A stretch of DNA of 53,844 bases from Actinomycetota bacterium (GTDB lineage: Bacteria; Actinomycetota; UBA4738; HRBIN12): assembly GCA_035463715.1 (NCBI GenBank), contig DATHSY010000073.1, forward strand, positions 1 through 53,844, written 5' to 3'. Positions within the stretch are counted from its first letter, which is position 1, and each line of letters starts with the position of its first letter. A program made the position numbers and the translations under genes. A model generated the notes under the pieces. It saw only the letters and a list, made by a program, of their open reading frames with translations, did not search any database and was not told the origin of the DNA. Shown piece by piece: positions 24,869 to 40,912 of the stretch.

Positions 24869-24937
24869 GGACCTGCGATTATCCCAGCGCGGGACGCGGC
24901 GACGGGCCTCAGCCCTGCCGGCGCGGCTGGTTGGCGC

Positions 24938-26239
24938 TCAGGTCGCGAGGAAGCGGGCGAGCGCGAACCGGCCGTCGATGTTGATGTCGCTCGTGGTCCC
25001 GACGACCACGATCGCGCCGTCGGGTTGGACGGTGAGGCCGTACCCGACGCTGTCGAACCCCGGGAACGGAGCCGACGCGGTTCCCCCATCCCCGAATCGA
25101 CGAACGCGTCTACCGTCCGCGTCGAACCGGACGGTGTCGAAGCTCCACGGTTCGTACCTGAATGGTCCCGTGACGACGATCCCGCCGTCGGCGAGTATCC
25201 CGACCCCGGACGCCGACGCAGGGGTCTCGACGATGCCGTCGTCCGAGAACGATCCGTCCAGGACGCCGTCCGGCCGGAACCGCATGAGCAGCCTCCCGGC
25301 GCCCACGACGATCGCGCCGTCGGACGCCACCGCCATGTCGACACGCGAGTGGTCCCGCACCGGGACGAGCACGGAACCGGCAGAGCCAAACGCAGCGTCA
25401 GCGGTGCCGTCGGAGAGGAACCTCGCCACGACGAGGTTGCACGCCGAGGCGTCGCACGCCACCCCGGCGACGAGGATGCGTCCGCGGCGAAGGATATGGA
25501 TCGCCGACGCGGATGATTCGACGGTCCGGTCCAGGAAGTGCGCGCGGACCTTGCCTTCTGAGCCGAACGTCGGATCGAGGACGCCGTCGATCCCGTAGCG
25601 AGCCATCGCGAACGCCCGACCCGCCAAGCCGGCCGCGACGACCTTGCCGTCGTCCTGCACGGCGACCGCGTAGGCGGCCGCCCTCGCCTGCCCGAAGCTC
25701 GTCCGCACCCTCCCGTTCCCGGTGAACGTGCGATCGAGGTCGCCGTCTTCTGAGTACCGCGCAAGCGCGAACGACGCGCCCGGATCCGTGTCCCTCGATC
25801 CCCCCGGCCCCTTGGCGGACGAGCCGGCGGCGACGACCGAGCCGTCGGCGTCGAACGCCATCGCGAACGCAGCCGACGGATGCGCGAACCTCGTCAGCAC
25901 CCGACCCACCCGGCCGAACGACGTATCCGATGCGCCGCTCGCGAACTGCCTGACGACGGCGAACGTGGTGTGGGCGCGTTGACGTGCGCCGACCGCGACG
26001 ATTCGTCCGTCGGAACGCACCTCGACGTCGTACAGGCGGCCCGCATACCCACCGAGACACCCGAAGGACTCGTCTTCCCAGACCGAGCAGCCCGCGATCA
26101 CCATCCCGCCCTCGCCGAATGCGGGATCGAGATCGCCGGAAGCGGCCCAGGCCGGAACGGGACGGGCCGAAACGGACAGCAGCGTCGACGTCAGGGCGGC
26201 CGCGATCCAGATCGCTCGACGCGTTCGTCGGATCGCCAT
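24938..26239 (-). CDS. secreted repeat protein (delta-60-type repeats, beta-propeller-like)
   Basis: ATG at 26237-26239. Signal MAIRRTRRAIWIAAALTSTLLSVSARPVPAWA. Reiterated ...ARY..DG.LD..FG..G... units (ALARYSEDGDLDRTFTGNG, AMARYGIDGVLDPTFGSEG, VVARFLSDGTADAAFGSAG, LMRFRPDGVLDGSFSDDG, ALARF). 433 aa. Confidence 0.75.
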   Translation of the reverse strand: MAIRRTRRAIWIAAALTSTLLSVSARPVPAWAASGDLDPAFGEGGMVIAGCSVWEDESFGCLGGYAGRLYDVEVRSDGRIVAVGARQRAHTTFAVVRQFASGASDTSFGRVGRVLTRFAHPSAAFAMAFDADGSVVAAGSSAKGPGGSRDTDPGASFALARYSEDGDLDRTFTGNGRVRTSFGQARAAAYAVAVQDDGKVVAAGLAGRAFAMARYGIDGVLDPTFGSEGKVRAHFLDRTVESSASAIHILRRGRILVAGVACDASACNLVVARFLSDGTADAAFGSAGSVLVPVRDHSRVDMAVASDGAIVVGAGRLLMRFRPDGVLDGSFSDDGIVETPASASGVGILADGGIVVTGPFRYEPWSFDTVRFDADGRRVRRFGDGGTASAPFPGFDSVGYGLTVQPDGAIVVVGTTSDINIDGRFALARFLAT

Positions 26240-26327
26240 CGGCCGTACCCCTGCGGCGTGTCCACGCGACGATACGCGCCGTCGCGGCCGAGTCACACTC
26301 GGATGACGTCGTTCCGCGACGTTACGT

Positions 26328-26348
26328 GGCGGCCGCCCGGCGGCCGCC
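26328..26348 (-). terminator. GC-rich palindrome immediately downstream of the XRE-cupin regulator stop
   Basis: GGCGGCCGCC-C-GGCGGCCGCC, 10-bp arms, beginning 8 nt past the stop at 26356. No clear U-tract. Confidence 0.35.
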
Positions 26349-26355
26349 GGCAACC

Positions 26356-26979
26356 TCAGTGGTCCTGCCGTCCGACCACGAACCAGATCGCGTGGACGGG
26401 GGCGTCGCCCTTGTTGAACAGCCGGTGCGGGATCGTCGAATCGAACGCGATCGAGTCGCCCGGGTTGAGCTCGTGCTCGTCGAACCCGATCTGGATCCCG
26501 AGCGTGCCGCTGATCACGTAGCCGTACTCGCGACCGTGGTGGCGCATCAACGACCGGTCGGGCGTCGACGCGCCTCCGACGCCGTAGGTCGCGAGCAGGA
26601 AGTCGATCCCGTCCTCGCGCTCGGCGGTCAGCTCCTCCCAACGGACGCCGGAGTCGAGGTCGATCGCCGCCCTGGTGTCCGGGTGCACCACGGGTGAGCC
26701 GTCGGAGCCCGTGTCCGATGCCGACGCGAGGGGTTCATCGTCGTCGCCACCCCTGATCACCCGGTCGATCGACACGCCGAGCTCGGTGACGATCGAGTAC
26801 AACGTGCCGACGGACGGCCTGGATTGACCGCTCTCGAGCTGCGAGATCAGGCTCGCGGACAGCCCGATCCGGCGCGCGAGCTCCCTCTGGCTGATGCCGG
26901 ACCGGACACGCTCCTCGCGCAGGCGCGCGCCGATCCCGTCGAGCGCCTCCGGGTCGCCCTGCGCCGACTCGCGTCTCAC
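26356..26979 (-). CDS. XRE-family HTH regulator with C-terminal cupin sensor domain (PuuR-like architecture)
   Basis: HTH_3 segment LREERVRSGISQRELARRIGLSASLISQLESGQSRPS and a C-terminal cupin (HHGREYGYVISG...PHRLFN). The GTG start overlaps the SDR stop (GTGA). Confidence 0.85.
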   Translation of the reverse strand: MRRESAQGDPEALDGIGARLREERVRSGISQRELARRIGLSASLISQLESGQSRPSVGTLYSIVTELGVSIDRVIRGGDDDEPLASASDTGSDGSPVVHPDTRAAIDLDSGVRWEELTAEREDGIDFLLATYGVGGASTPDRSLMRHHGREYGYVISGTLGIQIGFDEHELNPGDSIAFDSTIPHRLFNKGDAPVHAIWFVVGRQDH

Positions 26980-27668
26980 ACCAGGATCCAGCCGCCGTCG
27001 ACGTACAGGTTCACGCCGTTCACGGCGCGGTTCTCGAGGAGGAACACCGTCGCGTCGACGACGTCGGCCATCGTCGTGAGGCGCCCTGTCGGCGTCCGTG
27101 CGATCACCGCGTCCAGCGGCTTGCCGGACCAGAACGGGCTGTCGCCGACGATGCCGGGATGGATCGCGTTGACCCGGATCGGCGCGAGCTCGATCGCGAG
27201 CGTCCGGATGAGGCTGCTGACGCCGCCGTTGACCGTGGTCACCGTCGTCGATCCGGGATACGGGCGATCCTTCGCGCGACCGCCGTAGAGCACCACCGAC
27301 GACTCCTCGGACAGCCGGTCGAGCAAGGCATGGATCGTCGCCGGGTAGCCGACGAGCTTCATCGTGGTCAGGGCGACGGCCTTGTCGACGTCGTACTCGC
27401 GAACCGAGTTGTTGTCCCGGGCGATCGCCGCGAGGACGAGGCGCGACACCGGTCCGACGTCGGTGAGCGCGTCGGCGATCGTCTCCGGCCGGCCCAGGTC
27501 GAAGCCCAGACCGACGACGTCCCGACCGATCTCGGCCGCGACGGCGGTCGCTCGGTCGTGGTCGCGGCCCGTCACGATCACCTGCGCGCCGAGCTTGTCG
27601 TAGTGGACCGCGAGCTCACGCCCGATCCCGGCCGTGCCTCCGACGATCAGGACCGACCCCTCAGGCAT
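26976..27668 (-). CDS. short-chain dehydrogenase/reductase (SDR)
   Basis: Lies within ORF 26976..28433. ATG at 27666-27668. Cofactor motif VGGTAGIGRE. ...NAIHPGIV... 230 aa. Confidence 0.8.
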   Translation of the reverse strand: MPEGSVLIVGGTAGIGRELAVHYDKLGAQVIVTGRDHDRATAVAAEIGRDVVGLGFDLGRPETIADALTDVGPVSRLVLAAIARDNNSVREYDVDKAVALTTMKLVGYPATIHALLDRLSEESSVVLYGGRAKDRPYPGSTTVTTVNGGVSSLIRTLAIELAPIRVNAIHPGIVGDSPFWSGKPLDAVIARTPTGRLTTMADVVDATVFLLENRAVNGVNLYVDGGWILV

Positions 27669-27695
27669 CAGCGACCCAACCCCCTCGCTCGGCGA

Positions 27696-27814
27696 CCGCA
27701 GCGACACTACTCGACGAGGGCCGCGGTGTATAGCGTCGCTGAGCGGCCAGACGCTCGCCCGGAACGGCCGGTGTCTAGCCAAGGTCCCGGCATCTGTGTA
27801 GTGTCGCTGAACGG
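27696..27814. promoter_or_regulatory. divergent control region with three copies of a TAG(T/C)GTCGCTG motif
   Basis: CAGCGACACTAC (27699-27710) is the exact reverse complement of GTAGTGTCGCTG (27798-27809). A third copy, TAGCGTCGCTG, lies at 27731-27741. Each copy contains a TANNNT -10-like hexamer. Confidence 0.5.
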
Positions 27815-28710
27815 TGTTGGAGGGGACGCCTACCACGGTTGCCGTCGTCGGCACCGGCCGCATGGGCAGCGCGATGGCCGGGACGATCGGCCGAGCCGGC
27901 TTCGGGCTGGTGCTCTGGAACCGCGAGCCCTCGAAGTCGGAGCGCCTCGCCGCCGACCTGGGCGCGAGCATCGCGGCCTCGCCCGCCGAGGCCGCGTCGA
28001 AGGCCGACATGGTCCTGTCGAGCCTCGCCGACGACGCTGCCGTCGAGCACGTGTACATGGGCCCCGACGGCGTCGTGGAGGGCATCCCGCCGGGTGTCGT
28101 CGCCGTCGACACCAGCACCATCGATCCCCGCACGGTCGAGTCGGTCGGCGGTGCGGTCGAGGCAGCCGGCGCGAGCTTCCTCGACTGCCCCGTCTCGGGC
28201 AGCGTGAGCGTCGTCGAGGCGGGCGCGCTCACGATCATGGCGGGCGGCGAGGCGAGCGTGATCGATCGCGTTCGTCCCGTGCTGGACGCGATGGCATCGC
28301 GCGTCGTGCACATCGGCGGCCGCGGCGCGGGGTCGGCGATGAAGCTCGCCGTGAACAACCTCGTGCATGGGCTCAACGTCGCCCTCTCGGAGGCGATCGT
28401 CCTGGCCGAACGCGCCGGCGTCCCACGGACCACGGCGTACGAGGTCTTCGCTAACGGTGCCGGTGGCGCGCCGTTCGTGAACTACAAACGCGAGTCGTTC
28501 GAGCATCCCGAGACGGCGCCCGTGGCCTTCAGCCTGGACCTGGTCGCGAAGGACTACGAGCTGATCCTCGGGCTCGGCGGGCGGGTCGGGGTGCCGATGG
28601 AGCAGGCGGCCGCGTCGCAGGAGATCGTCCGCCGCGCGATCGCGAACGGCTACGGCGACCGCGACCTGAGCGCGATCGCCGTGTTCCTGCGGGGAGGCGA
28701 CGTCGGATGA
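27814..28710 (+). CDS. NAD(P)-dependent 3-hydroxyisobutyrate/tartronate-semialdehyde reductase-family oxidoreductase
   Basis: Rossmann VAVVGTGRMGSAMA and the family core ...DCPVSGSV..., ...GRGAGSAMKLAVN... The GTG at 27814 (or TTG at 27817) has no RBS, so the transcript may be leaderless. Confidence 0.8.
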   Translation: MLEGTPTTVAVVGTGRMGSAMAGTIGRAGFGLVLWNREPSKSERLAADLGASIAASPAEAASKADMVLSSLADDAAVEHVYMGPDGVVEGIPPGVVAVDTSTIDPRTVESVGGAVEAAGASFLDCPVSGSVSVVEAGALTIMAGGEASVIDRVRPVLDAMASRVVHIGGRGAGSAMKLAVNNLVHGLNVALSEAIVLAERAGVPRTTAYEVFANGAGGAPFVNYKRESFEHPETAPVAFSLDLVAKDYELILGLGGRVGVPMEQAAASQEIVRRAIANGYGDRDLSAIAVFLRGGDVG

Positions 28711-29645
28711 CGCACATCGTGAAGCTGCACGCCGACCTCGACCTGCGGACGCCGCCCGAGTTCGAGGGTCGGTCCCGGGGATACGCGGGGGACGCGGTCG
28801 TCGACGAGGGCGGCGGGTCGGTCCAGATGGGGTTCCGGATCGCCCGGCTCGAGCCGGGCGGGCGGGTCGACGCCCACGTGCACTCGTTCGAGGAGTCGAT
28901 CTACGTGATCGACGGCAGCCTGACGGTGGACACGACGGAGGGGTCGTTCGAACTGACGGCCGGCGACTACGGGCTGCTGCCGGTCGGCATGACGCACGCG
29001 TTCCGCAACCCGTCGGACGAAGTCGTGGGGCTTGCCGAGATGAGGGCGCCGCTGCCGCGGGAGCGGTTCGGCTTCGACACGCAGTTCCCCGGACCGCTCG
29101 AGACGGGGGCGGTCGCCCGCCGGATCGACGTCCGCGATCCACGGAACCGGAATTTCGGGCACATCGACGCCGGGTCGATGGATCCCGCGCTGCAGACGCA
29201 GGACCGGCTCGCCGTCAGCGCCAGCATGCGGACCGCGCTCCTCGTCTACAGCGGGATCACCGTGAAGATGATGGTCGACTCGGATCTCGGCGCCGACCTG
29301 TCGACGATGTTCATGGTCCAGTACGAGCCGGGCGGGTTCGCCGGACCGCACGATCATCCGCTCGAGGAGACCTATCTGATCCTCGACGGTGAGGTCGAGG
29401 GGGTGTTCGACGGCAGGACCTACCCCCTGGGACCCGGCGACGTCGCGTGGGCGGGCGTGGGCTGCGTCCACGAGTTCCGCAACGAGGCCCCCGGGCGAGT
29501 GCGGTGGCTCGAGACGCAGGCGCCCCAGCCGCCGCCTCGGCATTCGTACCGCTTCGCACGTGACTGGAGCTACCTCGAGCAGGCGCTGGGACGAGAGGCG
29601 CAGGGGACGTTGGCCCCGGACGGACAAGGAGCACGCCATGGATGA
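28707..29645 (+). CDS. bicupin protein with two intact His/Glu metal motifs (dioxygenase, decarboxylase or aminohydrolase type unknown)
   Basis: ATGA overlap with the upstream gene. Cupin 1: AHVHSFEESIYVIDG...PVGMTHAFRN. Cupin 2: GPHDHPLEETYLILDG...GVGCVHEFRN. Confidence 0.8.
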   Translation: MTHIVKLHADLDLRTPPEFEGRSRGYAGDAVVDEGGGSVQMGFRIARLEPGGRVDAHVHSFEESIYVIDGSLTVDTTEGSFELTAGDYGLLPVGMTHAFRNPSDEVVGLAEMRAPLPRERFGFDTQFPGPLETGAVARRIDVRDPRNRNFGHIDAGSMDPALQTQDRLAVSASMRTALLVYSGITVKMMVDSDLGADLSTMFMVQYEPGGFAGPHDHPLEETYLILDGEVEGVFDGRTYPLGPGDVAWAGVGCVHEFRNEAPGRVRWLETQAPQPPPRHSYRFARDWSYLEQALGREAQGTLAPDGQGARHG

Positions 29646-30891
29646 GTTCCCGGTAGCGACGAGCCCGGCCCCCGGGGTCATGGGCGTCGACTGGGAGAAC
29701 CGGGTCGACTTCGAGCGGCTGCGTCAGTACCGGCTCGGCCGCGTGCGCAGGATGCTGGCCGAGTTCGACCTCGGCGCCGTGCTGTTATTCGAGACGTCGA
29801 ACATCCGGTACGCGACCGCGACGCAGATCGGCTACTGGGCGTTCAACAAGGGGGAACGCTGGGCGCTGATCACGCGGGAGGGACGGCCGCGCGTCTGGGA
29901 CTTCGGGTCGGCCGCGAAGGCGCACCGGCTCCAGCTGCCGCACCTGTACGACACGCGGAACTCGATCGGCGGCAACACCGGGCTGCAGGGCGCCATCTCA
30001 CCCGAGACGGGCCTGCACGCGCGCGCCGTGCGCGAGATCCAGGCCGCGCTCGAGGAGGACGGCGTCGGCGGGGAACGGCTGGGCGTCGACCTCGCCGAGA
30101 CGGCGGTGTTCCTCGCGCTGCAAGAGGCGGGCGTCACCGTGGTCGACGGCCAACAGGCGATGATGCGCGCGAGAGAGATCAAGAGCCCAGACGAGATCGT
30201 CCTGTTGACGCAGGCGTGTGCGATGGTCGACGGCGTCTACCAGGACATCTTCGAGATGCTGAAGCCCGGAGTCCGCGAGTCGGACGTGGTCGGAATGGCG
30301 CATGCGCGCCTGTTCGGGATGGGATCGGAGTTCGTCGAGGCGATCAACTCGATCGCCGGCGAGCGCTGCAGCCCGCATCCGCACGTCTTCAGCGACCGGA
30401 TCATCCGGCCGGGCGACCAGGCCTACTTCGACATCATCCACGTCTTCAACGGCTACCGAACGTGCTACTACCGCACGTTCGTCGTCGGGCGCGCGACGCA
30501 GGCGCAGCGCGACGCGTTCAAGCAGTCACGCGAGTGGATGGACGCCGCGATCGACGTCGTCCGCCCAGGCGCGACGACCGACCAGATCGCGAAGGTCTGG
30601 CCGAGGGCAGAGGAGTTCGGCTTCCAGGACGAGATGGACGCGTTCGGGCTGCAGTTCGGCCACGGCGTCGGCGTCGGCCTGCACGAGCGGCCGATCGTCA
30701 GCCGGCTGAACTCGCTCGAGACGCCCGTAGAGATCCAGGAGGGGATGCTGTTCGCCCTCGAGACGTACGCGCCTGCCGCGGACGGACGGTCGGCCGCCCG
30801 GATCGAGGAAGAGGTGGTCGTCACGGCCTACGGCTGCAAGGTCATCACGCTGTTCCCGTGCGAGGAGCTGATGGTGGCCAATGCCTACTGA
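29638..30891 (+). CDS. M24-family hydrolase (creatinase / Xaa-Pro / DoeA-DddP-like pita-bread fold)
   Basis: ATG at 29638 follows AAGGAG, with an 8-nt overlap on the upstream gene. FGHGVGVGLHERP, FALETYA and ARIEEEVVVT are M24 motifs. 417 aa. Confidence 0.8.
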   Translation: MDEFPVATSPAPGVMGVDWENRVDFERLRQYRLGRVRRMLAEFDLGAVLLFETSNIRYATATQIGYWAFNKGERWALITREGRPRVWDFGSAAKAHRLQLPHLYDTRNSIGGNTGLQGAISPETGLHARAVREIQAALEEDGVGGERLGVDLAETAVFLALQEAGVTVVDGQQAMMRAREIKSPDEIVLLTQACAMVDGVYQDIFEMLKPGVRESDVVGMAHARLFGMGSEFVEAINSIAGERCSPHPHVFSDRIIRPGDQAYFDIIHVFNGYRTCYYRTFVVGRATQAQRDAFKQSREWMDAAIDVVRPGATTDQIAKVWPRAEEFGFQDEMDAFGLQFGHGVGVGLHERPIVSRLNSLETPVEIQEGMLFALETYAPAADGRSAARIEEEVVVTAYGCKVITLFPCEELMVANAY

Positions 30892-31942
30892 CCCACGGTA
30901 CGACTACGCGCTCCGCGAACCGCGGCTGCCGCCGCCCGTCGACCACTCGCTCGCGGAGGCACCGATCGACCTCGACGTCCGGATCGAGATGTACCGGACA
31001 CTGACCCGGATCCGCGCGTTCGGCAAGCGGGCGCACGACCTGTTCCTGCAGAACCTCGTCAAGGGAACCACGCACCTCTCGCTCGGGATGGAGGCCGTCG
31101 CGGCCGGCTTCGGCGCGGCGATGCAGCCGCACGACTACTCGTTCGCGACCTACCGCGGGCACGGGCACTCGCTCGCGCGAGGGATGGACCCGGGCGCCGC
31201 GATGGCCGAGCTGCTCGGCCGGGAGAACGGGATCCTCGGCGGCAAGGGCGGGTCGATGCACCTGACCGACACGGGCAAGGGGATGATGGGGTCGTACGCC
31301 ATCATCGGCGCGCACCTGTGCATCGCCAACGGAGCCGCGTGGTCGGCGCAGATGCGCGGGACCGATCAGGTGGCGGTCGCGTTCTTCGGCGACGGAACGA
31401 CAAACATCGGCGCGTTCCACGAGGCGCTCAACTTCGCGGTCGTCTGGAACCTGCCGGTCGTCTTCGTCGGCGAGAACAACCTATACATGGAGTACACGCC
31501 GATCGACGTCGTGACCTCGATCGACCCGCCGGTGGCCGGTCGCGCCCCGGCGTACGGGCTGCCGCAGATCCTGGTCGACGGCAACGATCCCGACGCCGTG
31601 TACCTCGTGGCGCGCGAGGCGCTGGACAAGGCGCGCTCGGGCGGCGGACCGTCGCTGATCGAGGCGGTGACGTACCGCTCCGGAGGGCACTCGCGTGCCG
31701 ACCCCGGCAAGTACCGGCCCGCCGAGGAGGTCGGCGCGTGGGCCGAGCGTGACCCCGTACCGATGTACCGCGCACGCCTGATCTCGATCGGGGTCGATGA
31801 GCAGCGTCTGGAAGCGATCCAGGACGAGCTCGACGAGTCGATCGACTCGGCCACCCACGTCGCGATGATGGGCGCCGAGCCGGGCGAGGACGCACTCCTG
31901 TCGCAGGTCTACGCGGACGGAGGTTCCCGGTGGCGGAACTGA
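30881..31942 (+). CDS. thiamine-diphosphate-dependent 2-oxoacid/acetoin dehydrogenase E1 alpha subunit
   Basis: TPP motif region FFGDGTTNIGAFHEALNFAVVWNLPVVFVGENNLY, plus YRGHGHS. ATG at 30881, with an 11-nt overlap. Confidence 0.88.
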   Translation: MPTDPRYDYALREPRLPPPVDHSLAEAPIDLDVRIEMYRTLTRIRAFGKRAHDLFLQNLVKGTTHLSLGMEAVAAGFGAAMQPHDYSFATYRGHGHSLARGMDPGAAMAELLGRENGILGGKGGSMHLTDTGKGMMGSYAIIGAHLCIANGAAWSAQMRGTDQVAVAFFGDGTTNIGAFHEALNFAVVWNLPVVFVGENNLYMEYTPIDVVTSIDPPVAGRAPAYGLPQILVDGNDPDAVYLVAREALDKARSGGGPSLIEAVTYRSGGHSRADPGKYRPAEEVGAWAERDPVPMYRARLISIGVDEQRLEAIQDELDESIDSATHVAMMGAEPGEDALLSQVYADGGSRWRN

Positions 31943-32919
31943 CCTACCGCGACGCGATCGCGTACGGGATCGCGCAGGAGATGCGGCGGGAGCCGAGCCT
32001 GGTGATGCTCGGCGAGGACATCGGACCGGCGGGCGGCGTGTTCAAGACCACCGTCGGCCTGATCGACGAGTTCGGGCCCGAACGGGTCCGGGACACCCCG
32101 ATCTCGGAGCAGGCGATCCTCGGCGCCGCGATGGGCGCGGCGATGACGGGGATCCCGGTGATCGCCGAGGTCATGTTCTCCGACTTCCTCGCGGTCTGTT
32201 GGGACATCGTCGCGAACCAGATCGCGAAGAGCCGCTACATGACGAACGGGCAGGTGAGCTTCCCACTCGTGATCCGGACCGCGAACGGCGGCGGCGTCCG
32301 GTTCGGCGCGCAGCACAGCCAGAGCGTCGAGAACTGGGCGATGATGATCCCGGGCCTCAAGGTCGTCGCCCCCTCGACGCCCGCGGACGTGGTCGGCCTG
32401 ATGGCGGCGGCGATCCGCGATCCCGATCCCGTCGTCTTCTTCGAGCACAAGGGCCTGATGGGGACCAAGGGCGAGATCCCCGACGGCGAGATCGTCGACG
32501 AGCTCGGCACCGCTAAGGTCGTTCGCGAGGGCACCGACGTCACGATCGCGGCCCTCGCACTGATGGTGCCGCGAGCGCTCGAGGCGGCGACGCGGCTCGA
32601 GCGCGACGGGGTCTCCGCCGAGGTGATCGACGTCCGCTCGCTCGTGCCGCTCGACACCCGCGCGCTGCTCGCCTCGGTGGAGAAGACGGGCCGATTCTGC
32701 ACGGTCGAGGAGAACCCGCGGCTGTGCGGATGGGGCGCCGAGCTCGTGTCGATCTTGTCCGAGGAGGCTTTCTGGAACCTCGACGGACCGAGCATCCGGA
32801 TCACGACGCCGCACATCCCGTTGCCGGCGGCGGCGTCGCTCGAGGACCTCGCGATGCCCTCGGCCGACCGGATCTACGAGACGGTGCACAAGTCGCTCGA
32901 CGCCGGGAGCCGCGCGTGA
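31930..32919 (+). CDS. 2-oxoacid/acetoin dehydrogenase E1 beta subunit (transketolase-like)
   Basis: LTYRDAIAYGIAQEMRR...GEDIG..GGVFKTT.GL...FGPERV.DTPISE is the canonical E1-beta N-terminus. GTG at 31930, with a 13-nt overlap. Confidence 0.88.
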   Translation: MAELTYRDAIAYGIAQEMRREPSLVMLGEDIGPAGGVFKTTVGLIDEFGPERVRDTPISEQAILGAAMGAAMTGIPVIAEVMFSDFLAVCWDIVANQIAKSRYMTNGQVSFPLVIRTANGGGVRFGAQHSQSVENWAMMIPGLKVVAPSTPADVVGLMAAAIRDPDPVVFFEHKGLMGTKGEIPDGEIVDELGTAKVVREGTDVTIAALALMVPRALEAATRLERDGVSAEVIDVRSLVPLDTRALLASVEKTGRFCTVEENPRLCGWGAELVSILSEEAFWNLDGPSIRITTPHIPLPAAASLEDLAMPSADRIYETVHKSLDAGSRA

Positions 32920-34187
32920 CGACCGGGACCCTGCTCCGCGGCGGGTGCATCCTCACCCTCGGGACGAAGACCCAGAACCTCAAGCGGGGTGACGTCCTGA
33001 TCGAGGACGGCCGGATCGCCGAGGTCGGGACGTCGGTCCGCGGCCGCGACGCCGAGGTCGTGGACGCGACGGACGCGATCGTGATGCCGGGGTTCGTGGA
33101 CACGCACCGTCACGCGTGGACGTCGTTGTTCCGCAACGCCGGCGACATCGCCGAGGTGTCGCCCGAGGTGCTCGGCGAGCACTACCGGCCAGGGGACGTC
33201 TACGCGGCCACGCTGATCGGGCTCCTTGGCGCGATCGAAGCCGGCATCACGACCGTCGTGGACGTTCTCGATCTCCCGCTCCGCGACGGCTTCGCGGAGG
33301 CGGCGCTGCAGGCGCACGCCGATTCCGGCGTCCGGACCGTGTTCGCGTTCGCGGCCCGAGAGGCAGCCGGCGACATGGTCGATCGCTTGTCCGGCGCGGC
33401 CGGGCCGGGGACGACCTTCGCGCTGGTCTCGGACGGTTTCGGCGACGGATGGACCGGCGCACGCGATCGCGGGCTGAGGGTCTTCGTGCACGCGCGGCCG
33501 ACCTTGTCGGTCCGCGGCGATGTTGCGCGGGCGGCATCGGAGGGCCTGCTCTCGGGCGAGGTCACGCTCGTTCATCACACCGCCCTCGACGATTCGGACC
33601 TCGATGCGATCGCGGGGTCGGGCGCCTGTGTCTCCCTGACGCCGTCGAGCGAGATGGCCACGGGGTTCGGCTCGCCACCGATCCAGGAGCTGATCGACCG
33701 AGGGATCAAACCGGGGCTCGGGATCGATCGGGAAGGGATGGCGCCAGGCGACATGTTCGCCCAGATGCGCCAGACGATCTCGCTCCAGCACGCGACCGTG
33801 TTCGACCGCAAGCTTGCGGGCAAGGCGGGGCTCCCCCGGCTGATGACGACCCGCGACGTGATCCGGTTCGCGACCTCTGAGGGGGCACGCGTCGCAGGGG
33901 TGCGGGAGGTGACCGGATCGCTCGAGCCCGGGCTGCAGGCAGACATCATCGTGCTCCGGACAGACCGCCCGAACGTATGGCCGATCAACGACCCGATCGG
34001 TGCCGTCGTCTGGGGGATGGACACGTCGAACATCGACCACGTCTTCGTCGGCGGCCGCCCGGTGATGCGCAGCGGCGTGCTCGCGGCCGACGTTGCCCGC
34101 GCGCGCTCGCTGGCGACGGGCGCACGCGGACACGTGACGGCCGCGGCGGGGATCGTCGCCCGAGCCGTCACGGGAGCCACGAGGTGA
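32916..34187 (+). CDS. amidohydrolase-superfamily enzyme A (TIM-barrel metallohydrolase/deaminase type)
   Basis: The GTG at 32916 overlaps the E1-beta stop (GTGA). HxH motif in IVMPGFVDTHRHAW, and a late Asp in GLGIDREGMAPGD. Paralog of the C-terminal domain of 38182..40635. Confidence 0.8.
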   Translation: MTTGTLLRGGCILTLGTKTQNLKRGDVLIEDGRIAEVGTSVRGRDAEVVDATDAIVMPGFVDTHRHAWTSLFRNAGDIAEVSPEVLGEHYRPGDVYAATLIGLLGAIEAGITTVVDVLDLPLRDGFAEAALQAHADSGVRTVFAFAAREAAGDMVDRLSGAAGPGTTFALVSDGFGDGWTGARDRGLRVFVHARPTLSVRGDVARAASEGLLSGEVTLVHHTALDDSDLDAIAGSGACVSLTPSSEMATGFGSPPIQELIDRGIKPGLGIDREGMAPGDMFAQMRQTISLQHATVFDRKLAGKAGLPRLMTTRDVIRFATSEGARVAGVREVTGSLEPGLQADIIVLRTDRPNVWPINDPIGAVVWGMDTSNIDHVFVGGRPVMRSGVLAADVARARSLATGARGHVTAAAGIVARAVTGATR

Positions 34188-35248
34188 ACTCCCCTCGGCC
34201 TGCGTCGTCCGCGCTCACGGCCTTCGTCGTCGCCTCGCGCTACATGCCCGTCTACATCGCCCTCGTGCTGCTCGTCGTCGTCGCGTCGATCTGGGCGCCC
34301 GCGACGCTGCGAGGGCCGTCCTTGCGGGCGATCGCCCCCGTGGGAACGCTCCTCGCGATCGCGGCCCTCGGTCAGATGCTCGTCGTGATGACGGGCGGCA
34401 TCGATCTCAGCGTCCCCGGAAGCCTGACCCTCGCGGCCGTGATCACGGTCGGCGTGGGACACGGGGCCGACGATCGCGTCGGTCCCGCGATCGTCGTCGC
34501 GCTCGCGGCGGTGGCGCTCGTCGGCCTCGTGAACGGCATCCTGATCGGTGGCATCGGCCTGAACCCCTTGATCGTGACACTCGCCGTCGGACAGATCGCG
34601 AGCGGCATCGCGTTCCGCTACTACACGAGCGTCGCGATCCAGACGCCCGTGCCGAAGGGGCTCTCCGGATGGACCTCGACCCGTCTGCTCGGCGTCCCGC
34701 GCACGTTCTGGCTGGGCGTCGCGGTCACGGTGGTGCTGATCGTCCTGTTCCGCTTCACGACGGTCGGGCGCCGGTTCCAGGTCGTCGGCGCCAACCCGAC
34801 GGCGTCGTGGATCGCCGGGCTCCGGGTCAACCTCAATCGCGTCTCCGCCTACGTCGTCGCGGCCATGCTGTACGGCGGCACCGGCATCCTGATCGCCTCG
34901 TACCTGCGCACGATCAGCATCACGATCGGCGCGCCGTACCTCCTCGGCCCGATCGCCGCGGTGGTGATCGGGGGGGCCTCGCTGACCGGCGGACTCGCGA
35001 GCCCGCTGTCGACGTGGGCCGCGGCCTTCTTCCTGGCCGGCCTCAACCAGATGATGCGCGTCCTCGGTCTGCCGACCGCGCTGCAGTTCGTCGTGTTCGG
35101 CGTGGTGATCGTCGGGGGGATGTTGATCTCGGGAGACCGGATCATCAGGGCGGTCGAGCACGTGCTTCGGGAAGGCAAGCGACCGGAACCACGAGCCGGC
35201 CCCGTGGTCGCCGGCATCGGACCCGGTGAGGACGGGGGGGTGATCTAA
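34184..35248 (+). CDS. CUT2-type ABC transporter permease A
   Basis: The GTG at 34184 overlaps the upstream stop (GTGA). Multi-TM protein with TGGIDLSVPGSLTLAAV and VIGGASLTGGLASP motifs. 354 aa. Confidence 0.85.
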   Translation: MNSPRPASSALTAFVVASRYMPVYIALVLLVVVASIWAPATLRGPSLRAIAPVGTLLAIAALGQMLVVMTGGIDLSVPGSLTLAAVITVGVGHGADDRVGPAIVVALAAVALVGLVNGILIGGIGLNPLIVTLAVGQIASGIAFRYYTSVAIQTPVPKGLSGWTSTRLLGVPRTFWLGVAVTVVLIVLFRFTTVGRRFQVVGANPTASWIAGLRVNLNRVSAYVVAAMLYGGTGILIASYLRTISITIGAPYLLGPIAAVVIGGASLTGGLASPLSTWAAAFFLAGLNQMMRVLGLPTALQFVVFGVVIVGGMLISGDRIIRAVEHVLREGKRPEPRAGPVVAGIGPGEDGGVI

Positions 35249-35309
35249 CGGGCTTCGAGGGATCGGCGAGCGATCTGCACGGATGACGGTCGACGTAGGG
35301 GAGGGGACG

Positions 35310-36593
35310 ATGCACCGGATCAGGTTCGTGGTCATCTTCGCGGTGTTCGCCTTGGTGGCGGCAGCGTGCGGTGGGGACGATGGCGACACCGGCGGGAACG
35401 GCGGTACGGACGGCGGGAACGCGACGACCGGGTCCGGGCCTCTCGCGGAGTACGGCGAGAGCACGGACGCGGATCCGGCGCTGATCGAGAAGGCGATGGG
35501 GCCGGTCGGGGAGGTTCCCGACATCGTGCTGGCCGCGATCGCTCGCGCGGATCAGGATCTCGACCAGGCCACGGTCGACAAGGCCCTGGAGTGCTGGGCG
35601 GCCACGCAGTGCGATACGGGCACCGGCGGCGACATCGTCATGGGGTACGCGGACGGCGGCGGCCTGAACGTCTGGCGTCAGGTGACGAGGATGGAGGCGA
35701 TCCTGCAGGCGCTCACGTATCCCGAGATCGGCAAGATGATGTTCCGCGACGCCAAGTGGGACCCCGATCCGGCGGTCGCCGCAGCCGACATCCGGTTCCT
35801 GATCCAGGCGGGTGTCGACTTCATCATCGGCTACCCGGACCAGGGCACGAACATCGCCGATGCGATCCTCGAGGTCCAGGCGGCCGGCATCCCCTACTCC
35901 ACGTACTCGGCCGGCTGGGTCGGCTTGCCAGGACAGGAGGGCGCGCTGGTTCCCGGCGAGGATTACCTGACCGTCGTCGGCGAGGACCTCTGCGCGCTGG
36001 GCGATAGCTTCGCCGATGTGATCAACGACGGCGTCCGATCGGGCAGCGTCGGCGTGATGGGCGGCACACCGGGCAACGCGTTGTCGCTCGGTTGGCAGCA
36101 GTGCTTCATGGACGCGGTGGACGACTCGGTCGACACACTCGGTCCCGCGGACACGTACTGGTCGAACGACGTCGCCCTCGAGGTCGTGAACGGGTGGCTC
36201 TCGACGAACCCGGACATCAAGGGGTACGCGTACGAGTACGCGGACGGCCTCAACACGGCGTTGCAGGCCTACGACGAGCTCGGCGTGCCGGTGCGCGATC
36301 TGACGGTCGCCCTGCGCACGGACGAGCAGACGCTGTTCTGCGACTGGGCCGAACGGGACGCGCCGAACTACGACATCTGGTACTCGGCCGGCGGCAACTT
36401 CCAGTCGCGTGTGGCGGTGACCGCTTCGATGATGTACTTGAAGGATGCCGACATCTCGGGTGAGATCGTCGTCCCGCACGTGATGCGTCAGGTCACGGAG
36501 GACGACTGCAACCCCGACCGCGTGACGCCGACGGTGTCGGGGACGTCGCTCGTGCCGGACGAGGTGCTGGCGCTGATGTATCCGAGCGGATGA
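35310..36593 (+). CDS. ABC transporter substrate-binding lipoprotein (unknown ligand)
   Basis: ATG at 35310 follows GGGGAGGGG. MHRIRFVVIFAVFALVAAACGG is a lipobox, followed by a Gly/Asp/Thr linker. 427 aa, unusually long for a CUT2 binding protein. Confidence 0.8.
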   Translation: MHRIRFVVIFAVFALVAAACGGDDGDTGGNGGTDGGNATTGSGPLAEYGESTDADPALIEKAMGPVGEVPDIVLAAIARADQDLDQATVDKALECWAATQCDTGTGGDIVMGYADGGGLNVWRQVTRMEAILQALTYPEIGKMMFRDAKWDPDPAVAAADIRFLIQAGVDFIIGYPDQGTNIADAILEVQAAGIPYSTYSAGWVGLPGQEGALVPGEDYLTVVGEDLCALGDSFADVINDGVRSGSVGVMGGTPGNALSLGWQQCFMDAVDDSVDTLGPADTYWSNDVALEVVNGWLSTNPDIKGYAYEYADGLNTALQAYDELGVPVRDLTVALRTDEQTLFCDWAERDAPNYDIWYSAGGNFQSRVAVTASMMYLKDADISGEIVVPHVMRQVTEDDCNPDRVTPTVSGTSLVPDEVLALMYPSG

Positions 36594-38185
36594 GCAGGAG
36601 CGACCCCGAGGAAGGGTCGGTAGGCGGAGAGGTCGTCCTCGAGCTGACCGGGGTGTCCCGTCAGTTCGGCGCGGTGCGCGCGCTGACCGACGTCAGCTTC
36701 GACTGCCGCGCCGGCGAGGTCCACGCCATCGTCGGCGAGAACGGCTCGGGCAAATCGACCCTCCTCGGGATCGCGAGCGGCTTCGTCGACCCCGATCGCG
36801 GCACGGTCACGATCGGCGGCAGGCGATTACGCCGGGATTCCCCGGCCGAGGCCAGGAAGCTGGGCCTGGCGATGGCGTACCAGGACACCTCGTTGATCCT
36901 GGCGCAGCCGGTGAAGAACAACCTCTACCTCGCCGCCCCGCCGGAGGAGCGACCGCCGTTCTGGCGCCGGAAGAAGTGGGCGCGGCGCGTCCTCGCCGGG
37001 TTCGACCTCGACATCGAGCTCTTCCCCGACATGCCGGCGGGGGCGTTGACGCTCGCGGACCGTCAGCTGTTCGAGGTCGCCAAGGCGCTGGTCACGGAAC
37101 CGCGCGTGCTCCTCCTCGACGAGCCGACCACCGCGCTCGGCCCGCACGAGGTCGAAGCGCTCCACCGCACGCTGTCAGCATGCCGCGATCGTGGCGTCGG
37201 CGTTGTGTACGTGAGCCACCGGCTCCCGGAGGTGCTCGAGGTCGCGGATCGCATCACGGTCCTGCGCGACGGCCGGAGCCAGGGGACGTTCGACGCGCGC
37301 GACGTCACGGAGCATCAGCTCGTCGACCTGATCGTCGGGCGCGCGTTCGAGGCGGCGTTCCCGCCTCCCGCGCCGGGTGAGGGCGAGCGACGCGACCGGC
37401 TCGTCGTGGACGGGCTCCAGGGGCAGGCGTTCGGACCCGTGACCTTCACGCTCGTGAGCGGCGAGATCGTCGGCGTCGCGGGTGCCGAGGGCAACGGCCA
37501 GCCGCAGCTGTTCGACTGCCTCGCCGGACGACAGCCGCCGCGCGCGGGGCGCGTCGCATGCGACGGCAGGGAGCTGATGCTGATCTCCACGCACGAGGCC
37601 GTCCGTGCCGGGATCATGCTCTTGCCCGGGGACCGGAGGCAGGAAGCGCTGATGCCCGTGCTCGGCGTGCGGGTCAACTCGACGATCCAGTCGCTCCGAC
37701 GGTTCGCGACGATGGGGTTCCTGCGGCGGAGGAGGGAGCGCCGGCGGGTGCGAGAGCTCGTCGAACGGCTCGAGATCAAGACTCCGTCGCTCGAGCAGCC
37801 CGTGGGGTTCCTGTCCGGCGGCAACCAGCAGAAGGTCGCGGTCTCCCGCACGTTCCTGCGCGAACCGGCGGTGATCCTCGCGTACGAGCCGACGCAAGGC
37901 GTCGACGTCGGTTCCCGGTTCGATATCTACGCCGCGCTCCGCTCGCGGACCGACACCGGGACGGCCATGCTCGTCAAGTCGAGCGATCCCCTCGAGCTGG
38001 CCGGTCTGTGCGACCGGGTCCTCGTGATGTCGCGGGGTCAGATCGTCGAGGAGATCCCGGGCGACGAGCTCGACGAGTTCCGGATCGTCGAGGCGATCGT
38101 GCGAGGCCCCGGGATGTCACGGGCGGGCCGCTCCCCACTCGGCGTCGCGATGCCGAAGGCTCCCACCCAGCGGAGGGACGTGTGA
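36590..38185 (+). CDS. ABC transporter ATP-binding protein, duplicated nucleotide-binding domains
   Basis: ATGA overlap with the upstream gene. NBD1 has GENGSGKST and LLLDEPTTAL. NBD2 has GAEGNGQPQL (degenerate Walker A), LSGGNQQK and ILAYEPTQGVD. Confidence 0.88.
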   Translation: MSRSDPEEGSVGGEVVLELTGVSRQFGAVRALTDVSFDCRAGEVHAIVGENGSGKSTLLGIASGFVDPDRGTVTIGGRRLRRDSPAEARKLGLAMAYQDTSLILAQPVKNNLYLAAPPEERPPFWRRKKWARRVLAGFDLDIELFPDMPAGALTLADRQLFEVAKALVTEPRVLLLDEPTTALGPHEVEALHRTLSACRDRGVGVVYVSHRLPEVLEVADRITVLRDGRSQGTFDARDVTEHQLVDLIVGRAFEAAFPPPAPGEGERRDRLVVDGLQGQAFGPVTFTLVSGEIVGVAGAEGNGQPQLFDCLAGRQPPRAGRVACDGRELMLISTHEAVRAGIMLLPGDRRQEALMPVLGVRVNSTIQSLRRFATMGFLRRRRERRRVRELVERLEIKTPSLEQPVGFLSGGNQQKVAVSRTFLREPAVILAYEPTQGVDVGSRFDIYAALRSRTDTGTAMLVKSSDPLELAGLCDRVLVMSRGQIVEEIPGDELDEFRIVEAIVRGPGMSRAGRSPLGVAMPKAPTQRRDV

Positions 38186-40635
38186 GCACGCGCGTCGACA
38201 CCGCACGGATCGCGGTCCGCAAGGTCCTCCGCGATGCGCGCGACAAGAACAAGTGGCGGAAGATCGTGCGGTTCCGGCTCTGGATGCCGGTCGTCCTCCA
38301 ACTGCTCCTGATCGTCGGGGTCGCGTGGTACACGACGACGCGCTTCCCCGGCTTCGTCAACACCGCGAACGTCACGAACACGCTGATCCTGGCGGCACCG
38401 CTCGCGATGGTCGCGATCGGTCAGACCCATGCGCTGCTGATCGGAGGCCTCGACCTGTCGGTCGGTGCGATGGTGACGTTCGGCGTCGTCGTCGCCTCGT
38501 TCCTGATCGGGCCGGAGTCGACGTCGTCGCACGTCCTGTTGGGTGTGGGCGCGATCCTCGGGTGCGGCGTGGCGCTCGGCCTGGTCAACGCCGGCCTCGT
38601 CGTCGGCCTCAAGATCCCGTCGATCATCGCAACGCTCGCGACGCTCAGCATCCTGAACGGCATCTCGCTCACGCTCCGCGGGACGCCCGGCGGGATCATC
38701 GACCGCGACTTCACGTCGTTGCTCCGGACGAGCATCGGGCCGGTGCCCGTGATCTTCATCGTCGTCCTGCTCGCCGCCGGCGCGCTCGACTACTGGCTGC
38801 ATGCGACGGGCTCCGGCCTGCAGCTGCGGTCGACCGGGTTCGACGAGCAGTCGGCGAAGCGGAGCGGCGTTCGGACCAAGTGGGTCCGCGCGCGCGCCTT
38901 CGTGCTCTCCTCGGTGTTCGCCGCCGTCGGCGCGTTCTTCGTGATGACGCGCTCGGGCATCGGCAACGCGCAGATCGGCGACGCGTACGCGCTCAGCAGC
39001 ATCACGGCGGCGGTGCTGGGCGGTGCCGCCCTGTCGGGCGGGCGGGCGACGTTCCTCGGGGCGCTCGTCGCATCGGTCCTTCTCGCGCTCATCATCAGCG
39101 CACTGCCGTTCCTCGGGCTGGGCGCCGAGCACGGGCTCATCATCATCGGCATCCTCGTCCTCCTCGGGATCGTGCTGTTCCAGGTCGGGGACCTGAAGGA
39201 GCTGGTCAAGAGGAACTACAAGCGGGCGCGGCGGGTCGTGATCGGGAGCCGGCCGCCGAAGACGGCCACGATCCCGGATCTGTATCCGGAGGAGCCGAAC
39301 TTCGGTGTGGCACCCACCGGCAGGACGCTGATCAAGGGCGGAACGATCCTCAGCCTGGATCCGAGGGTGGGTAACTTCCTGACCGGAGATGTCCTGATCG
39401 ACGGCGACCGGATCATCGACGTTCGCCCGGGGCTGCAGGTCGACGGCGCGGATGTGATCGACGCTGGCGGGATGATCGTGATGCCGGGGTTCGTCGACAC
39501 GCACCGGCACATCTGGGAGGGCCTGCTTCGGAACATCGGGACGGACGTGCCGCTCGAGGGCCGCTCCAGCTACATCTCATACGTCCTTCACAAGCTCGCG
39601 CCGGCGTACCGGCCCGAGGACGCGTACCTCGGCAACCTGATCTCGGCGCTGGGCGCCATCGACGCCGGCATCACGACGCTGCTCGACTGGTCCCACATCC
39701 AGGGGTCTCCCGCACACACGGACGCCGTGATCCAGGCCCTGGAAGACTCGGGTCTGCGGGCGGTCTTCGCGTACGGGTTCCCATGGTGGGGCAAGTGGGA
39801 GGAGCGCCAGCCAAGCTGGTTCGTCCGGGCGGCGAGCGAGCATTTCTCGACGAGGGACCAGAAGCTGACGCTCGCGCTGGCCGCTCCCGGTCCGGAGTTC
39901 ACCGATTTCGAGGTCTCGCGCGACCACTGGAAGCTCGCGCGCGAGACCGGCGCGCGGATCACGACCCACGTCGGCGTCGGGACCTACGGCAAGGACGGCA
40001 AGGTCCAGGAGATGGGCGAGGCGGGACTGCTCGGGGCCGACACGACGTACATCCACTGCACGACGCTGAACGACACGGAGATCCAGATGATCGTCGACAC
40101 CGGCGGCACGGTGTCCCTCGCCTCGCCGGTCGAGATGATGATGGGTCACGGCATGCCGCCGATCCAGAAGTTCCTGGACCGGGGGCTGCGTCCGAGCCTG
40201 AGCGTCGACGTCGAGACGAACGTGCCGGGCGACATGTTCAATCAGATGCGCTCGGTGCTCGCGCTCCAGCGGGCGAACGCGACCGCGGAGGGCAAGGCTC
40301 CGCTGACGGCGTCGGAGGTCCTGGCCTGCGCGACGATCGACGGTGCGAAGGCGAACGGGCTCGAGGCGACGATCGGAACGCTGACGCCGGGCAAGCAGGC
40401 CGACGTCATCGTGCTGCGTACGGACCGCATCAACGTCACGCCGCTCAACGACCCCTCCACGGCGGTCGTCACCGGGATGGACACCGGCAACGTCGATACG
40501 GTCCTGATCGCCGGACGGGTGATGAAGCGTCACGGCGAGCTGCTCCACGTCGACTGGCCGGCCGTGAAGCGGATGGTCGCCGAGTCACGCGATCACGTGC
40601 TCGCCAGATCCGGCTTCAAGCCCCCATCGATCTGA
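38182..40635 (+). CDS. in-frame fusion of CUT2 ABC permease B (N-terminal ~340 aa) with amidohydrolase B (C-terminal ~440 aa)
   Basis: The GTG at 38182 overlaps the ATPase stop (GTGA), and the frame stays open for 817 aa. Permease motifs are LIGGLDLSVGAMVTF and VLGGAALSGGRATF. A linker ...KRNYKRARRVVIGSRPPKTATIPDLYPEEPNFG follows. The amidohydrolase part has IVMPGFVDTHRHIW, ITTHVGVG, TYIHCTTL and SLSVDVETNVPGD. Confidence 0.8.
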   Translation: MSTRVDTARIAVRKVLRDARDKNKWRKIVRFRLWMPVVLQLLLIVGVAWYTTTRFPGFVNTANVTNTLILAAPLAMVAIGQTHALLIGGLDLSVGAMVTFGVVVASFLIGPESTSSHVLLGVGAILGCGVALGLVNAGLVVGLKIPSIIATLATLSILNGISLTLRGTPGGIIDRDFTSLLRTSIGPVPVIFIVVLLAAGALDYWLHATGSGLQLRSTGFDEQSAKRSGVRTKWVRARAFVLSSVFAAVGAFFVMTRSGIGNAQIGDAYALSSITAAVLGGAALSGGRATFLGALVASVLLALIISALPFLGLGAEHGLIIIGILVLLGIVLFQVGDLKELVKRNYKRARRVVIGSRPPKTATIPDLYPEEPNFGVAPTGRTLIKGGTILSLDPRVGNFLTGDVLIDGDRIIDVRPGLQVDGADVIDAGGMIVMPGFVDTHRHIWEGLLRNIGTDVPLEGRSSYISYVLHKLAPAYRPEDAYLGNLISALGAIDAGITTLLDWSHIQGSPAHTDAVIQALEDSGLRAVFAYGFPWWGKWEERQPSWFVRAASEHFSTRDQKLTLALAAPGPEFTDFEVSRDHWKLARETGARITTHVGVGTYGKDGKVQEMGEAGLLGADTTYIHCTTLNDTEIQMIVDTGGTVSLASPVEMMMGHGMPPIQKFLDRGLRPSLSVDVETNVPGDMFNQMRSVLALQRANATAEGKAPLTASEVLACATIDGAKANGLEATIGTLTPGKQADVIVLRTDRINVTPLNDPSTAVVTGMDTGNVDTVLIAGRVMKRHGELLHVDWPAVKRMVAESRDHVLARSGFKPPSI

Positions 40636-40912
40636 TCGAACCACCTGCGACGGCCGGCAGCAGCGACACCGTGTCGCCCTCCTTGACCGGCGTCTCGAGC
40701 GAGCCGAGGTAGCGCACGTCCTCGTCGTTCACGTAGACGTTGATGAACCGGTGCAGCGCGCCCTCATCGGAGACGACGTTCTTCGTGATGCCCGGGTAGC
40801 GGGACTCGAGGTCCTTCAGGAGCTCGCGAAGCGTGGACCCGTCGGCGTCGACGACGGGCTCGCCGCCGGCATGCTTGCGCAGGATCTGGGGCAGCTTGAC
40901 CTTGACGGACAT
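40616..40912 (-). CDS. cysO: MoaD/ThiS-family sulfur carrier protein (CysO-like) with a 7-aa extension beyond the GG terminus
   Basis: ATG at 40910-40912 follows AAGGAGAG. MSVKVKLPQILRKHAGG...HRFINVYVNDEDVRYLG...GDTVSLLPAVAGG closely resembles mycobacterial CysO and is then followed by SIRSMGA-stop. The last 20 nt overlap the convergent fusion gene. Confidence 0.8.
   Translation of the reverse strand: MSVKVKLPQILRKHAGGEPVVDADGSTLRELLKDLESRYPGITKNVVSDEGALHRFINVYVNDEDVRYLGSLETPVKEGDTVSLLPAVAGGSIRSMGA

Follow-up and report, generated by a model that had tools for sequence, protein, structure and literature searches.

A probable hotspot of gene gain and loss between cysO and cysM in an uncultured family of soil Actinomycetota

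Genetic organisation of the locus

The window, i.e., the whole stretch of DNA that was analysed (53,844 nucleotides, nt), is a contig (C73) of an actinobacterial metagenome-assembled genome (MAG; G000, 65% complete, in 209 contigs) with a GC content of about 70% across its length. It carries two groups of genes on the minus strand, selD-mec-E1(ThiF)-cysO (43320-40616) and cysM-murI-MBL-rph-rdgB (24868-21038), which lie 15.7 kb apart. The subject of this work is the block of genes that separates cysO from cysM, and the spacer that harbours it. Genes were called from a frame plot of the GC content at third codon positions, together with Pfam and NCBIfam scans. The features are given below, where G001 is the only genome of the same genus that was searched.

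21038-21646, minus strand: rdgB (Pfam; also present in the string of G001)
21643-22380, minus strand: rph (Pfam; also present in the string of G001)
22362-23114, minus strand: MBL gene, Rv1339-like (Pfam)
23105-23932, minus strand: murI (Pfam)
23936-24868, minus strand: cysM, predicted to be of the CysO-dependent O-phosphoserine sulfhydrylase type (PALP domain)
24869-24890, minus strand: predicted core promoter of cysM (sequence and conservation)
24909-24937, minus strand: relic of the 3' end of an OmdA/DUF8412-family gene, including the stop codon (the gene is intact in the conspecific contig L159)
24938-26239, minus strand: secreted DUF5122 beta-propeller repeat protein (Pfam DUF5122 and a signal-peptide-like N-terminus)
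26356-26979, minus strand: XRE-cupin regulator (Pfam), the left end of a 14.3 kb module
26976-27668, minus strand: SDR oxidoreductase (Pfam)
27814-40635, plus strand: tightly packed ten-gene operon (Pfam, NCBIfam, frame plot), comprising the next ten genes
27814-28710, plus strand: HIBADH-like reductase
28707-29645, plus strand: bicupin
29638-30891, plus strand: M24 hydrolase
30881-31942, plus strand: E1 alpha subunit of a 2-oxoacid dehydrogenase
31930-32919, plus strand: E1 beta subunit of a 2-oxoacid dehydrogenase
32916-34187, plus strand: amidohydrolase
34184-35248, plus strand: CUT2 permease of an ABC importer
35283-36593, plus strand: binding protein of a CUT2-type ABC importer
36590-38185, plus strand: double ABC ATPase
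38182-40635, plus strand: permease::amidohydrolase fusion, 817 amino acids (aa)
40616-40912, minus strand: cysO, 98 aa (ThiS domain)
40930-41751, minus strand: ThiF-type E1, 273 aa, with a ThiF domain only (Pfam, NCBIfam)
41748-42194, minus strand: mec, JAMM protease (Prok-JAB domain, E 8e-21)
42244-43320, minus strand: selD (NCBIfam)

An earlier note on this DNA had described an accessory block of about 15.7 kb between cysO and cysM, which splits a conserved string of genes and consists of a secreted repeat protein, an XRE-cupin/SDR pair and a ten-gene operon. The gene map and the contiguity of the string in G001 agree with this description, and so do the Pfam and NCBIfam matches of the contents. 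It had also seen no rhomboid gene; there is indeed none within the string, and the only one found in the assembly belongs to a different contig (C105).

The block is an insertion with genuine junctions

In G001, whose CysM is 93% identical to that of the window, the genes selD-mec-E1-cysO-cysM-murI-MBL-rph-rdgB are contiguous and the spacer between cysO and cysM has 120 nt. The two genes are likewise contiguous in 13 of the 4-kb loci of 29 relatives. The string is conserved on both sides of the spacer: the order mec-E1-cysO is retained in every relative where it is visible, and tblastn searches found cysM-murI-MBL retained in all 29 relatives examined. Because the string of G001 is contiguous and the operon is at this site in no other genome searched, the block counts as inserted when measured against the ancestral order of the lineage itself, and not just against that of mycobacteria. 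The earlier note had proposed to compare synteny with close relatives; in G001 cysO is directly followed by cysM, and the block is not an ancestral arrangement shared by the lineage.

The converse scenario is that the arrangement of the window is ancestral and that the relatives with adjacent cysO and cysM deleted the block. Deletions do happen here, as relics of the DUF5122 gene or the OmdA-like gene persist in conspecific haplotypes that lack the respective gene. However, the operon is found here in none other of the more than 150 genomes searched, the relatives that encode it have it elsewhere and show an empty spacer or one with other cargo, and empty spacers are spread over eight families of the order. 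Furthermore, a deletion in G001 would have to remove 15.7 kb and yet leave the relic of a different gene. We thus give very little credence to an ancestral block.

The position of the right junction is defined to the nucleotide. In cysO, the Gly-Gly codons are at 40640-40645 and are followed by a seven-residue tail, SIRSMGA, and the stop codon (40616-40639). This tail is read from the strand opposite the final codons of the fusion gene, which leaves zero intergenic DNA at the junction. Homology to G001 ends at the last Gly codon of cysO (CysO ends in ...AVAGG-A in G001 and in ...AVAGG-SIRSMGA in the window), and the fusion protein retains its native end (...KPPSI and stop), intact as in 24 other loci. 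The module must therefore end at most 4 nt from its last stop, abutting the GG codons.

The incompleteness and fragmentation of the MAG could raise the suspicion that the junctions are artefacts of metagenome assembly or binning. Yet both are internal to the 53.8 kb contig, and the cysO/fusion junction is seen again in assemblies from ENA and JGI that are independent of it. The exact 98-aa CysO, including the tail, is present in 49 blocks of a public collection, and the convergent 817-aa fusion gene overlaps cysO by 20 nt in 8 of 8 places among the matches listed (ENA and JGI samples). The cysO/operon junction is identical in 7 of 7 contigs with an identical E1. An independent contig of 36.7 kb (ERZ27272645 k141_71919) spans both junctions, and in one of 27.3 kb, cysO, the operon and cysM are present but the DUF5122 gene is not. 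Since the junctions recur in independent metagenome assemblies, they are real, and an assembly error is effectively refuted.

Occupancy of the spacer across the family

For another 150 genomes of the family of the window, we located E1 and cysM and computed how far apart they lie. At 119 of the 140 cysM loci of the family, E1/cysO and cysM are on one contig and always on the same strand, with no inversion; the remaining 21 loci have no E1 match on the same contig. The distance between E1 and cysM is 312-426 nt in 41 of the 119 loci, i.e., there is cysO only, and it is larger in 78, where the spacers hold 0.05-21 kb of differing cargo. With 16,065 nt, the window has the third largest distance. 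Of the 18 genera represented by two or more genomes, 14 include both empty and occupied spacers, and a wider sample covering eight families of the order has 18 occupied spacers out of 37. The other junctions of the string provide a gauge of these frequencies: mec/E1, E1/cysO, cysM/murI and murI/MBL are tight and contain no insert in every relative where they are visible. Relative to them, the spacer between cysO and cysM is in all probability a family-wide hotspot of gene gain and loss, and not the site of a one-off event.

The cargo is lineage-specific. It includes InhA-like and subtilisin-type secreted peptidases, a hemerythrin, a phosphoesterase, a multicopper oxidase, a malectin/DUF5122 protein, a two-component system and, in one family, a set with Glu-dehydrogenase, GcvT and amine oxidase. 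No recombinase domain was found with Pfam in 30 open reading frames (ORFs) of cargo from 13 other genomes. Among individual spacers, those of L045, L047 and L048 (G040, G036 and G030, of one family) share a Glu/Leu dehydrogenase, a GcvT-like aminomethyltransferase and 2-3 amine oxidases, and this set looks like an older insert kept across genera.

Relics and haplotypes on the side of cysM

At the left junction, the stop codon of the DUF5122 gene is at once followed by 29 nt that correspond to the last codons of the OmdA/DUF8412-family gene of a conspecific contig. Four contigs encode a CysM identical to that of the window, and only one of them repeats its arrangement. In L157 and L158, the XRE-cupin gene is 81 nt from cysM, there is no DUF5122 gene, and the spacer keeps a short stretch resembling the 5' end of the OmdA-like gene. 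In L159, the XRE-cupin gene is followed by an intact OmdA-like gene (195 aa) and then by cysM. In these contigs homology resumes at GCTGGGATAAT, within the predicted promoter (24869-24890). L157 also bears the cysO/fusion junction which, together with the seven contigs with an identical E1, implies that the junction between operon and cysO is fixed in the population and that the slot on the side of cysM is polymorphic. In G001, the spacer preserves the 3' end of the OmdA-like gene in diverged form. Within the family, the DUF5122 protein is matched by partial paralogues only (35-52% identity), none of them in a spacer, and no homologue of it or of the OmdA-like protein was found in other spacers. 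The block is composite, made of the module and a strain-specific DUF5122 sub-insert, and took at least two steps to form.

Distribution and origin of the module

The fusion protein at the right end of the module is a CUT2 ABC permease in frame with a PRK08204-type amidohydrolase. It is a real and widespread architecture, since 384 loci in MAGs of soil Actinomycetota (titled Actinomycetes, Actinomycetota or Acidimicrobiia) encode it at full length. The 80 of these loci that were examined have this set of a dozen genes in at least three orders and never adjoin cysO or cysM. The catabolic genes may come before those of the transporter, as in the window, after them, or be divergent from them (L058-L137; G014 C1:953350-969483). 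Two genera of the family hold the gene order of the window plus another, and the overall picture points to frequent shuffling of sub-modules. The M24 gene is present in 10 of the 24 other genera of the family.

The module is collinear in G017 from the stop codon of the XRE-cupin gene to that of the fusion (26369-40638 in the window), with 79% nucleotide identity, and is there on another contig than cysM; the flanking core genes have 75-79% nucleotide identity with those of G017. When G094 and G061 are also considered, the module is 74-81% and the flanking core genes are 74-79% identical. The divergence of the module equals that of the core, so that the module dates back to the separation of these genera. 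A recent transfer, as the 92-95% identity of M24 to distant genomes might indicate, was rejected because M24 is slow-evolving in all copies with the gene order of the window. No recent donor can be named, since the identity of the whole module equals that of the core, and no ancestral home locus can be defined, the contexts being different save in two seemingly closely related genomes with matching flanks.

The earlier note had seen an insertion without visible hallmarks of mobility and of a composition similar to its flanks, and our searches bear this out. Pfam scans found no recombinase domain in any ORF of the block, there is no tRNA in the window, and the direct or inverted repeats sought at the flanks gave matches at chance level only. 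The tetranucleotide composition of the block falls at the 25th-92nd percentile of the 5-kb chunks of the same genome; a foreign origin by composition was rejected, the block being indistinguishable from the genome. The block thus has none of the classical traits of genomic islands, integrative elements or prophages (recombinase, tRNA/attachment repeats, deviant composition). Could it still be a decayed integrative element, transposon or prophage that lost its integrase, its att sites and its foreign composition? Its size, accessory content and patchy distribution (including that of M24) would be compatible with such an origin, as would the variation of the contexts of the module between genomes. 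Against this, recombinase domains are lacking in the ORFs of the block and in the cargo elsewhere, there are no tRNA or terminal repeats, and the composition is native. In addition, the homology of the module with G017 stops at the ends of genes, with no conserved non-coding termini, and its divergence equals that of the core. We thus regard a mobile remnant as improbable.

The position of the operon could alternatively reflect selection for a function with CysO and CysM, e.g., the liberation of sulfur, or of a precursor of cysteine, from a compound taken up by the cell. This would fit the physical adjacency and the fixation of the junction in the species population, and the best NCBIfam match of the M24 hydrolase is the dimethylsulfoniopropionate lyase DddP, albeit at 111 bits for a cut-off of 600. 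No member of the operon, however, reaches the cut-off of any curated sulfur enzyme. Transcribed towards cysO and away from cysM, the operon is co-transcribed with neither, the module adjoins neither gene in the 80 other loci nor in G017, G094 and G061, and the site holds unrelated cargo in 78 genomes of the family. Such a functional coupling is, in our view, very unlikely.

CysM and its predicted promoter

The best match of CysM in PDB is the CysM of M. tuberculosis (3DWG/3DKI; 362 bits, E 3e-107), followed by an enterobacterial CysM at 243 bits, and orthologues that are 74-93% identical are found in 40 of 40 relatives. Judging from its sequence, it is an enzyme of the O-phosphoserine/CysO-thiocarboxylate type.

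A GATAAT hexamer is found at 24878-24883 (minus strand), with a spacer of 9 nt to the ATG of cysM; it is preceded by TGG, the TG being at 24885-24886, and there is no Shine-Dalgarno sequence upstream of cysM. Among 30 genomes, 29 have the 11-mer [G/C]CTGNGATAATC in the 60 nt that precede cysM; in the remaining one, the stretch of 60 nt examined ends within the motif. The element CTGGGATAATC lies 6-11 nt ahead of an in-frame ATG or GTG of cysM in 27 of the 30 genomes, and in 20 of them the hexamer ends 6-7 nt before the start, a spacing too short to accommodate a Shine-Dalgarno sequence. In the whole assembly of 1.55 Mb, TGGGATAAT occurs once and GATAAT seven times. The sequence further upstream is not conserved between genera or between conspecific haplotypes, so the promoter appears to be a self-contained extended -10 (TGnGATAAT) with no conserved -35 or leader. 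A scan for two-hexamer sigma-70 promoters returned nothing at either junction, and it is thus the extended -10 element that carries the case for a promoter. An intrinsic-terminator scan also returned nothing at either junction. Start-site maps in mycobacteria place the -10 motif 6-13 nt upstream of the start, with about a quarter of the transcripts leaderless and ATG or GTG sufficient for leaderless initiation (PMC6448022). The spacing of the motif fits this position, which suggests that the mRNA of cysM is likely leaderless or near-leaderless. In L011 and L019 (G014 and G019), the GATAAT element is at least 32 nt upstream of the aligned start of CysM instead of 6-11 nt, which means either a start codon further upstream or genes with a leader.

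The -10 motif is also present in 13 relatives with an empty spacer. The promoter would accordingly be ancestral and not a product of the insertion, and the latter did not create the transcriptional uncoupling, given that the motif is present where cysO and cysM adjoin. This bears on several statements of the earlier note. The GATAAT box is where it had been placed, 9 nt before the ATG; an own, possibly leaderless, promoter of cysM is strongly backed by the conservation across genomes; and the expected CysO dependence of CysM fits its closest solved relative. Of the claim that the block uncouples cysM from the carrier genes, the physical separation stands, whereas the transcriptional uncoupling seems to predate the insertion.

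The tail of CysO and its neighbours

CysO has a ThiS domain and the motif ...LPAVAGG, after which come the seven residues encoded at the junction, and a free GG end would need processing. The tails of CysO in the relatives have 0-9 residues, with one of 48. The latter belongs to L042 (G029), where the CysO frame runs 48 residues past the Gly-Gly; across the order, tails with 1-9 residues are frequent. The read-through tail could plausibly be trimmed by Mec, the JAMM protease encoded alongside.

The operon and cysO are convergent, with an overlap of 20 nt (40616-40635) and no terminator-like hairpin on either strand; convergent transcription should therefore collide or yield antisense RNA across both 3' ends. 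A Cys-type selD (42244-43320; 379 bits for a cut-off of 125) is directly upstream of mec-E1-cysO. It precedes mec also in L032, L033, L035, L036, L042, L044, L046 and L049, i.e., in every relative locus that reaches that far. According to Pfam, the E1 (273 aa, ThiF only) lacks the rhodanese domain that acts as sulfur donor in MoeZ-type E1 enzymes, and SelD could for this reason be linked to the loading of the carrier. In the downstream group, public gene tables list for the MBL gene (22362-23114) a match to Apyc1 (Anti-Pycsar, PF23023) besides Lactamase_B, which probably reflects shared cyclic-nucleotide phosphodiesterase ancestry only.

A proposed permissive site of gene capture

How can this spacer, and no other junction of the string, accumulate genes? 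We think it is probably a permissive, recombinase-free site of gene capture with two limits, filled stepwise through housekeeping recombination. The spacer would be the sole boundary between transcription units within the string. Upstream, the mec-E1-cysO unit would end at the Gly-Gly of CysO, any tail being trimmed by Mec; downstream, cysM would be expressed from its self-contained TGnGATAAT as a leaderless mRNA. Between two such limits, DNA could be inserted, swapped or deleted without harm to either unit, and it is the pre-existing transcriptional uncoupling of cysM that would make the site permissive.

The simplest reading of the relics suggests an order of events. The spacer probably held at first a small OmdA-like gene (cysO-omdA-cysM). 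The catabolic and ABC-import module resident in the family (14.3 kb, from the XRE-cupin gene to the fusion) would then have been placed between cysO and omdA, and the OmdA-like gene would finally have been replaced by the DUF5122 gene in the window, or deleted in the sister haplotypes. Entry was most likely by illegitimate or flank-homology recombination carried out by housekeeping functions, with no dedicated integrase.

Several points weigh against this explanation. The route of recombination is proposed by analogy with hotspots free of mobile elements, and the processing of the tail by Mec is likewise conjectural. The promoter and the leaderless status are deduced from conservation and spacing, and the conserved 11-mer could be the site of a regulator, additionally or instead. 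With a module as diverged as the core, both a relocation within the genome and a transfer from an unsampled relative fit the sequences. Finally, all the genomes compared are MAGs, and the failure to find the ten-gene operon in G001 (93% complete) is not proof of its absence.

A bolder version of the explanation is that the spacer is a self-insulated natural landing pad, in which a carrier 3' end proofed by the JAMM protease and an upstream-independent promoter of 12 nt account, with no recombinase, for capture across the family. We offer it tentatively and tend to doubt it. If true, a tolerant or protease-trimmed 3' end facing a leaderless gene would predict other hotspots in the compact genomes of Actinomycetota and indicate sites suited to neutral integration in engineering.

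The findings leave the current understanding of how hotspots work unchanged. What the locus adds is that its limits can be placed with nucleotide precision and that its recent steps are preserved as relics and coexisting haplotypes, which makes the explanation of a permissive site directly testable at one locus. That cysM in this order appears to be an independent, probably leaderless unit, in contrast to the single operon of M. tuberculosis, is relevant for reading sulfur-carrier cysteine pathways in MAGs. The locus is also a place to seek strain-specific adaptive genes, often secreted enzymes or uptake and catabolic modules, of abundant uncultured soil bacteria. Our literature search turned up no publication that deals with cysO/cysM in Acidimicrobiia or with this hotspot.

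Comparison with known systems

Burns and colleagues reportedly described mec-cysO-cysM of M. tuberculosis (Rv1334-Rv1336) in 2005. The loci are alike in the JAMM protease Mec, the ThiS-like CysO and a CysM that is closest to that of M. tuberculosis, and both have murI-MBL-rph-rdgB downstream. In the family studied here, there is in contrast a rhodanese-less ThiF-type E1 between mec and cysO, selD before mec, and no rhomboid gene between cysM and murI. The eleven genes Rv1331-Rv1341 form one operon according to reverse transcription PCR, with an auxiliary promoter before mec (PMC8280819), whereas here cysM seems to have its own conserved -10 and is often physically apart from cysO.

The putative promoter resembles those of the leaderless genes of M. 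smegmatis and M. tuberculosis (PMC6448022) in its -10-like hexamer that ends 6-9 nt before an ATG or GTG and the lack of a Shine-Dalgarno sequence. Genes of amino-acid biosynthesis, the class of cysM, are enriched among the leaderless transcripts of these maps. The mycobacterial motif is TANNNT without a -35, while here it is GATAAT with an invariant TG extension, and the 11-mer is conserved across the order far beyond the needs of a generic -10.

JAMM proteases encoded beside carrier genes have been proposed to trim the tails of the carriers in the pairs QbsE/QbsD and CxnE/CxnF (PMC5925218). These systems share with ours residues after the GG (2 in QbsE, 10 in CxnE, 7 here) and a gene for a JAMM protease alongside. 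They differ in that the tail of the window is an accident of the insertion junction, antisense to the neighbouring gene, that its length varies among close relatives (0-9, one of 48), and that its trimming is here a supposition.

The site itself is of a known kind, the hotspots free of mobile elements. Half of the hotspots analysed by Oliveira, Touchon, Cury and Rocha in 2017 show no evidence of mobile elements and 27% lack any mobility protein, and double recombination at the core genes on either side was proposed for those free of mobile elements (PMC5635113). As in these, accessory genes concentrate here in the interval between the same two core genes, they turn over rapidly within genera and within one species population, and they come with no integrase or transposase and a native composition. 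Raised recombination of the flanking genes is part of the published model, and the likeness here concerns occupancy and cargo. The hotspot between cysO and cysM differs in that it lies in an uncultured family of soil actinobacteria, and not in cultured species, and in that its limits can be drawn to the nucleotide: the Gly-Gly codons of the carrier on one side and a putative extended -10 of about 12 nt on the other.

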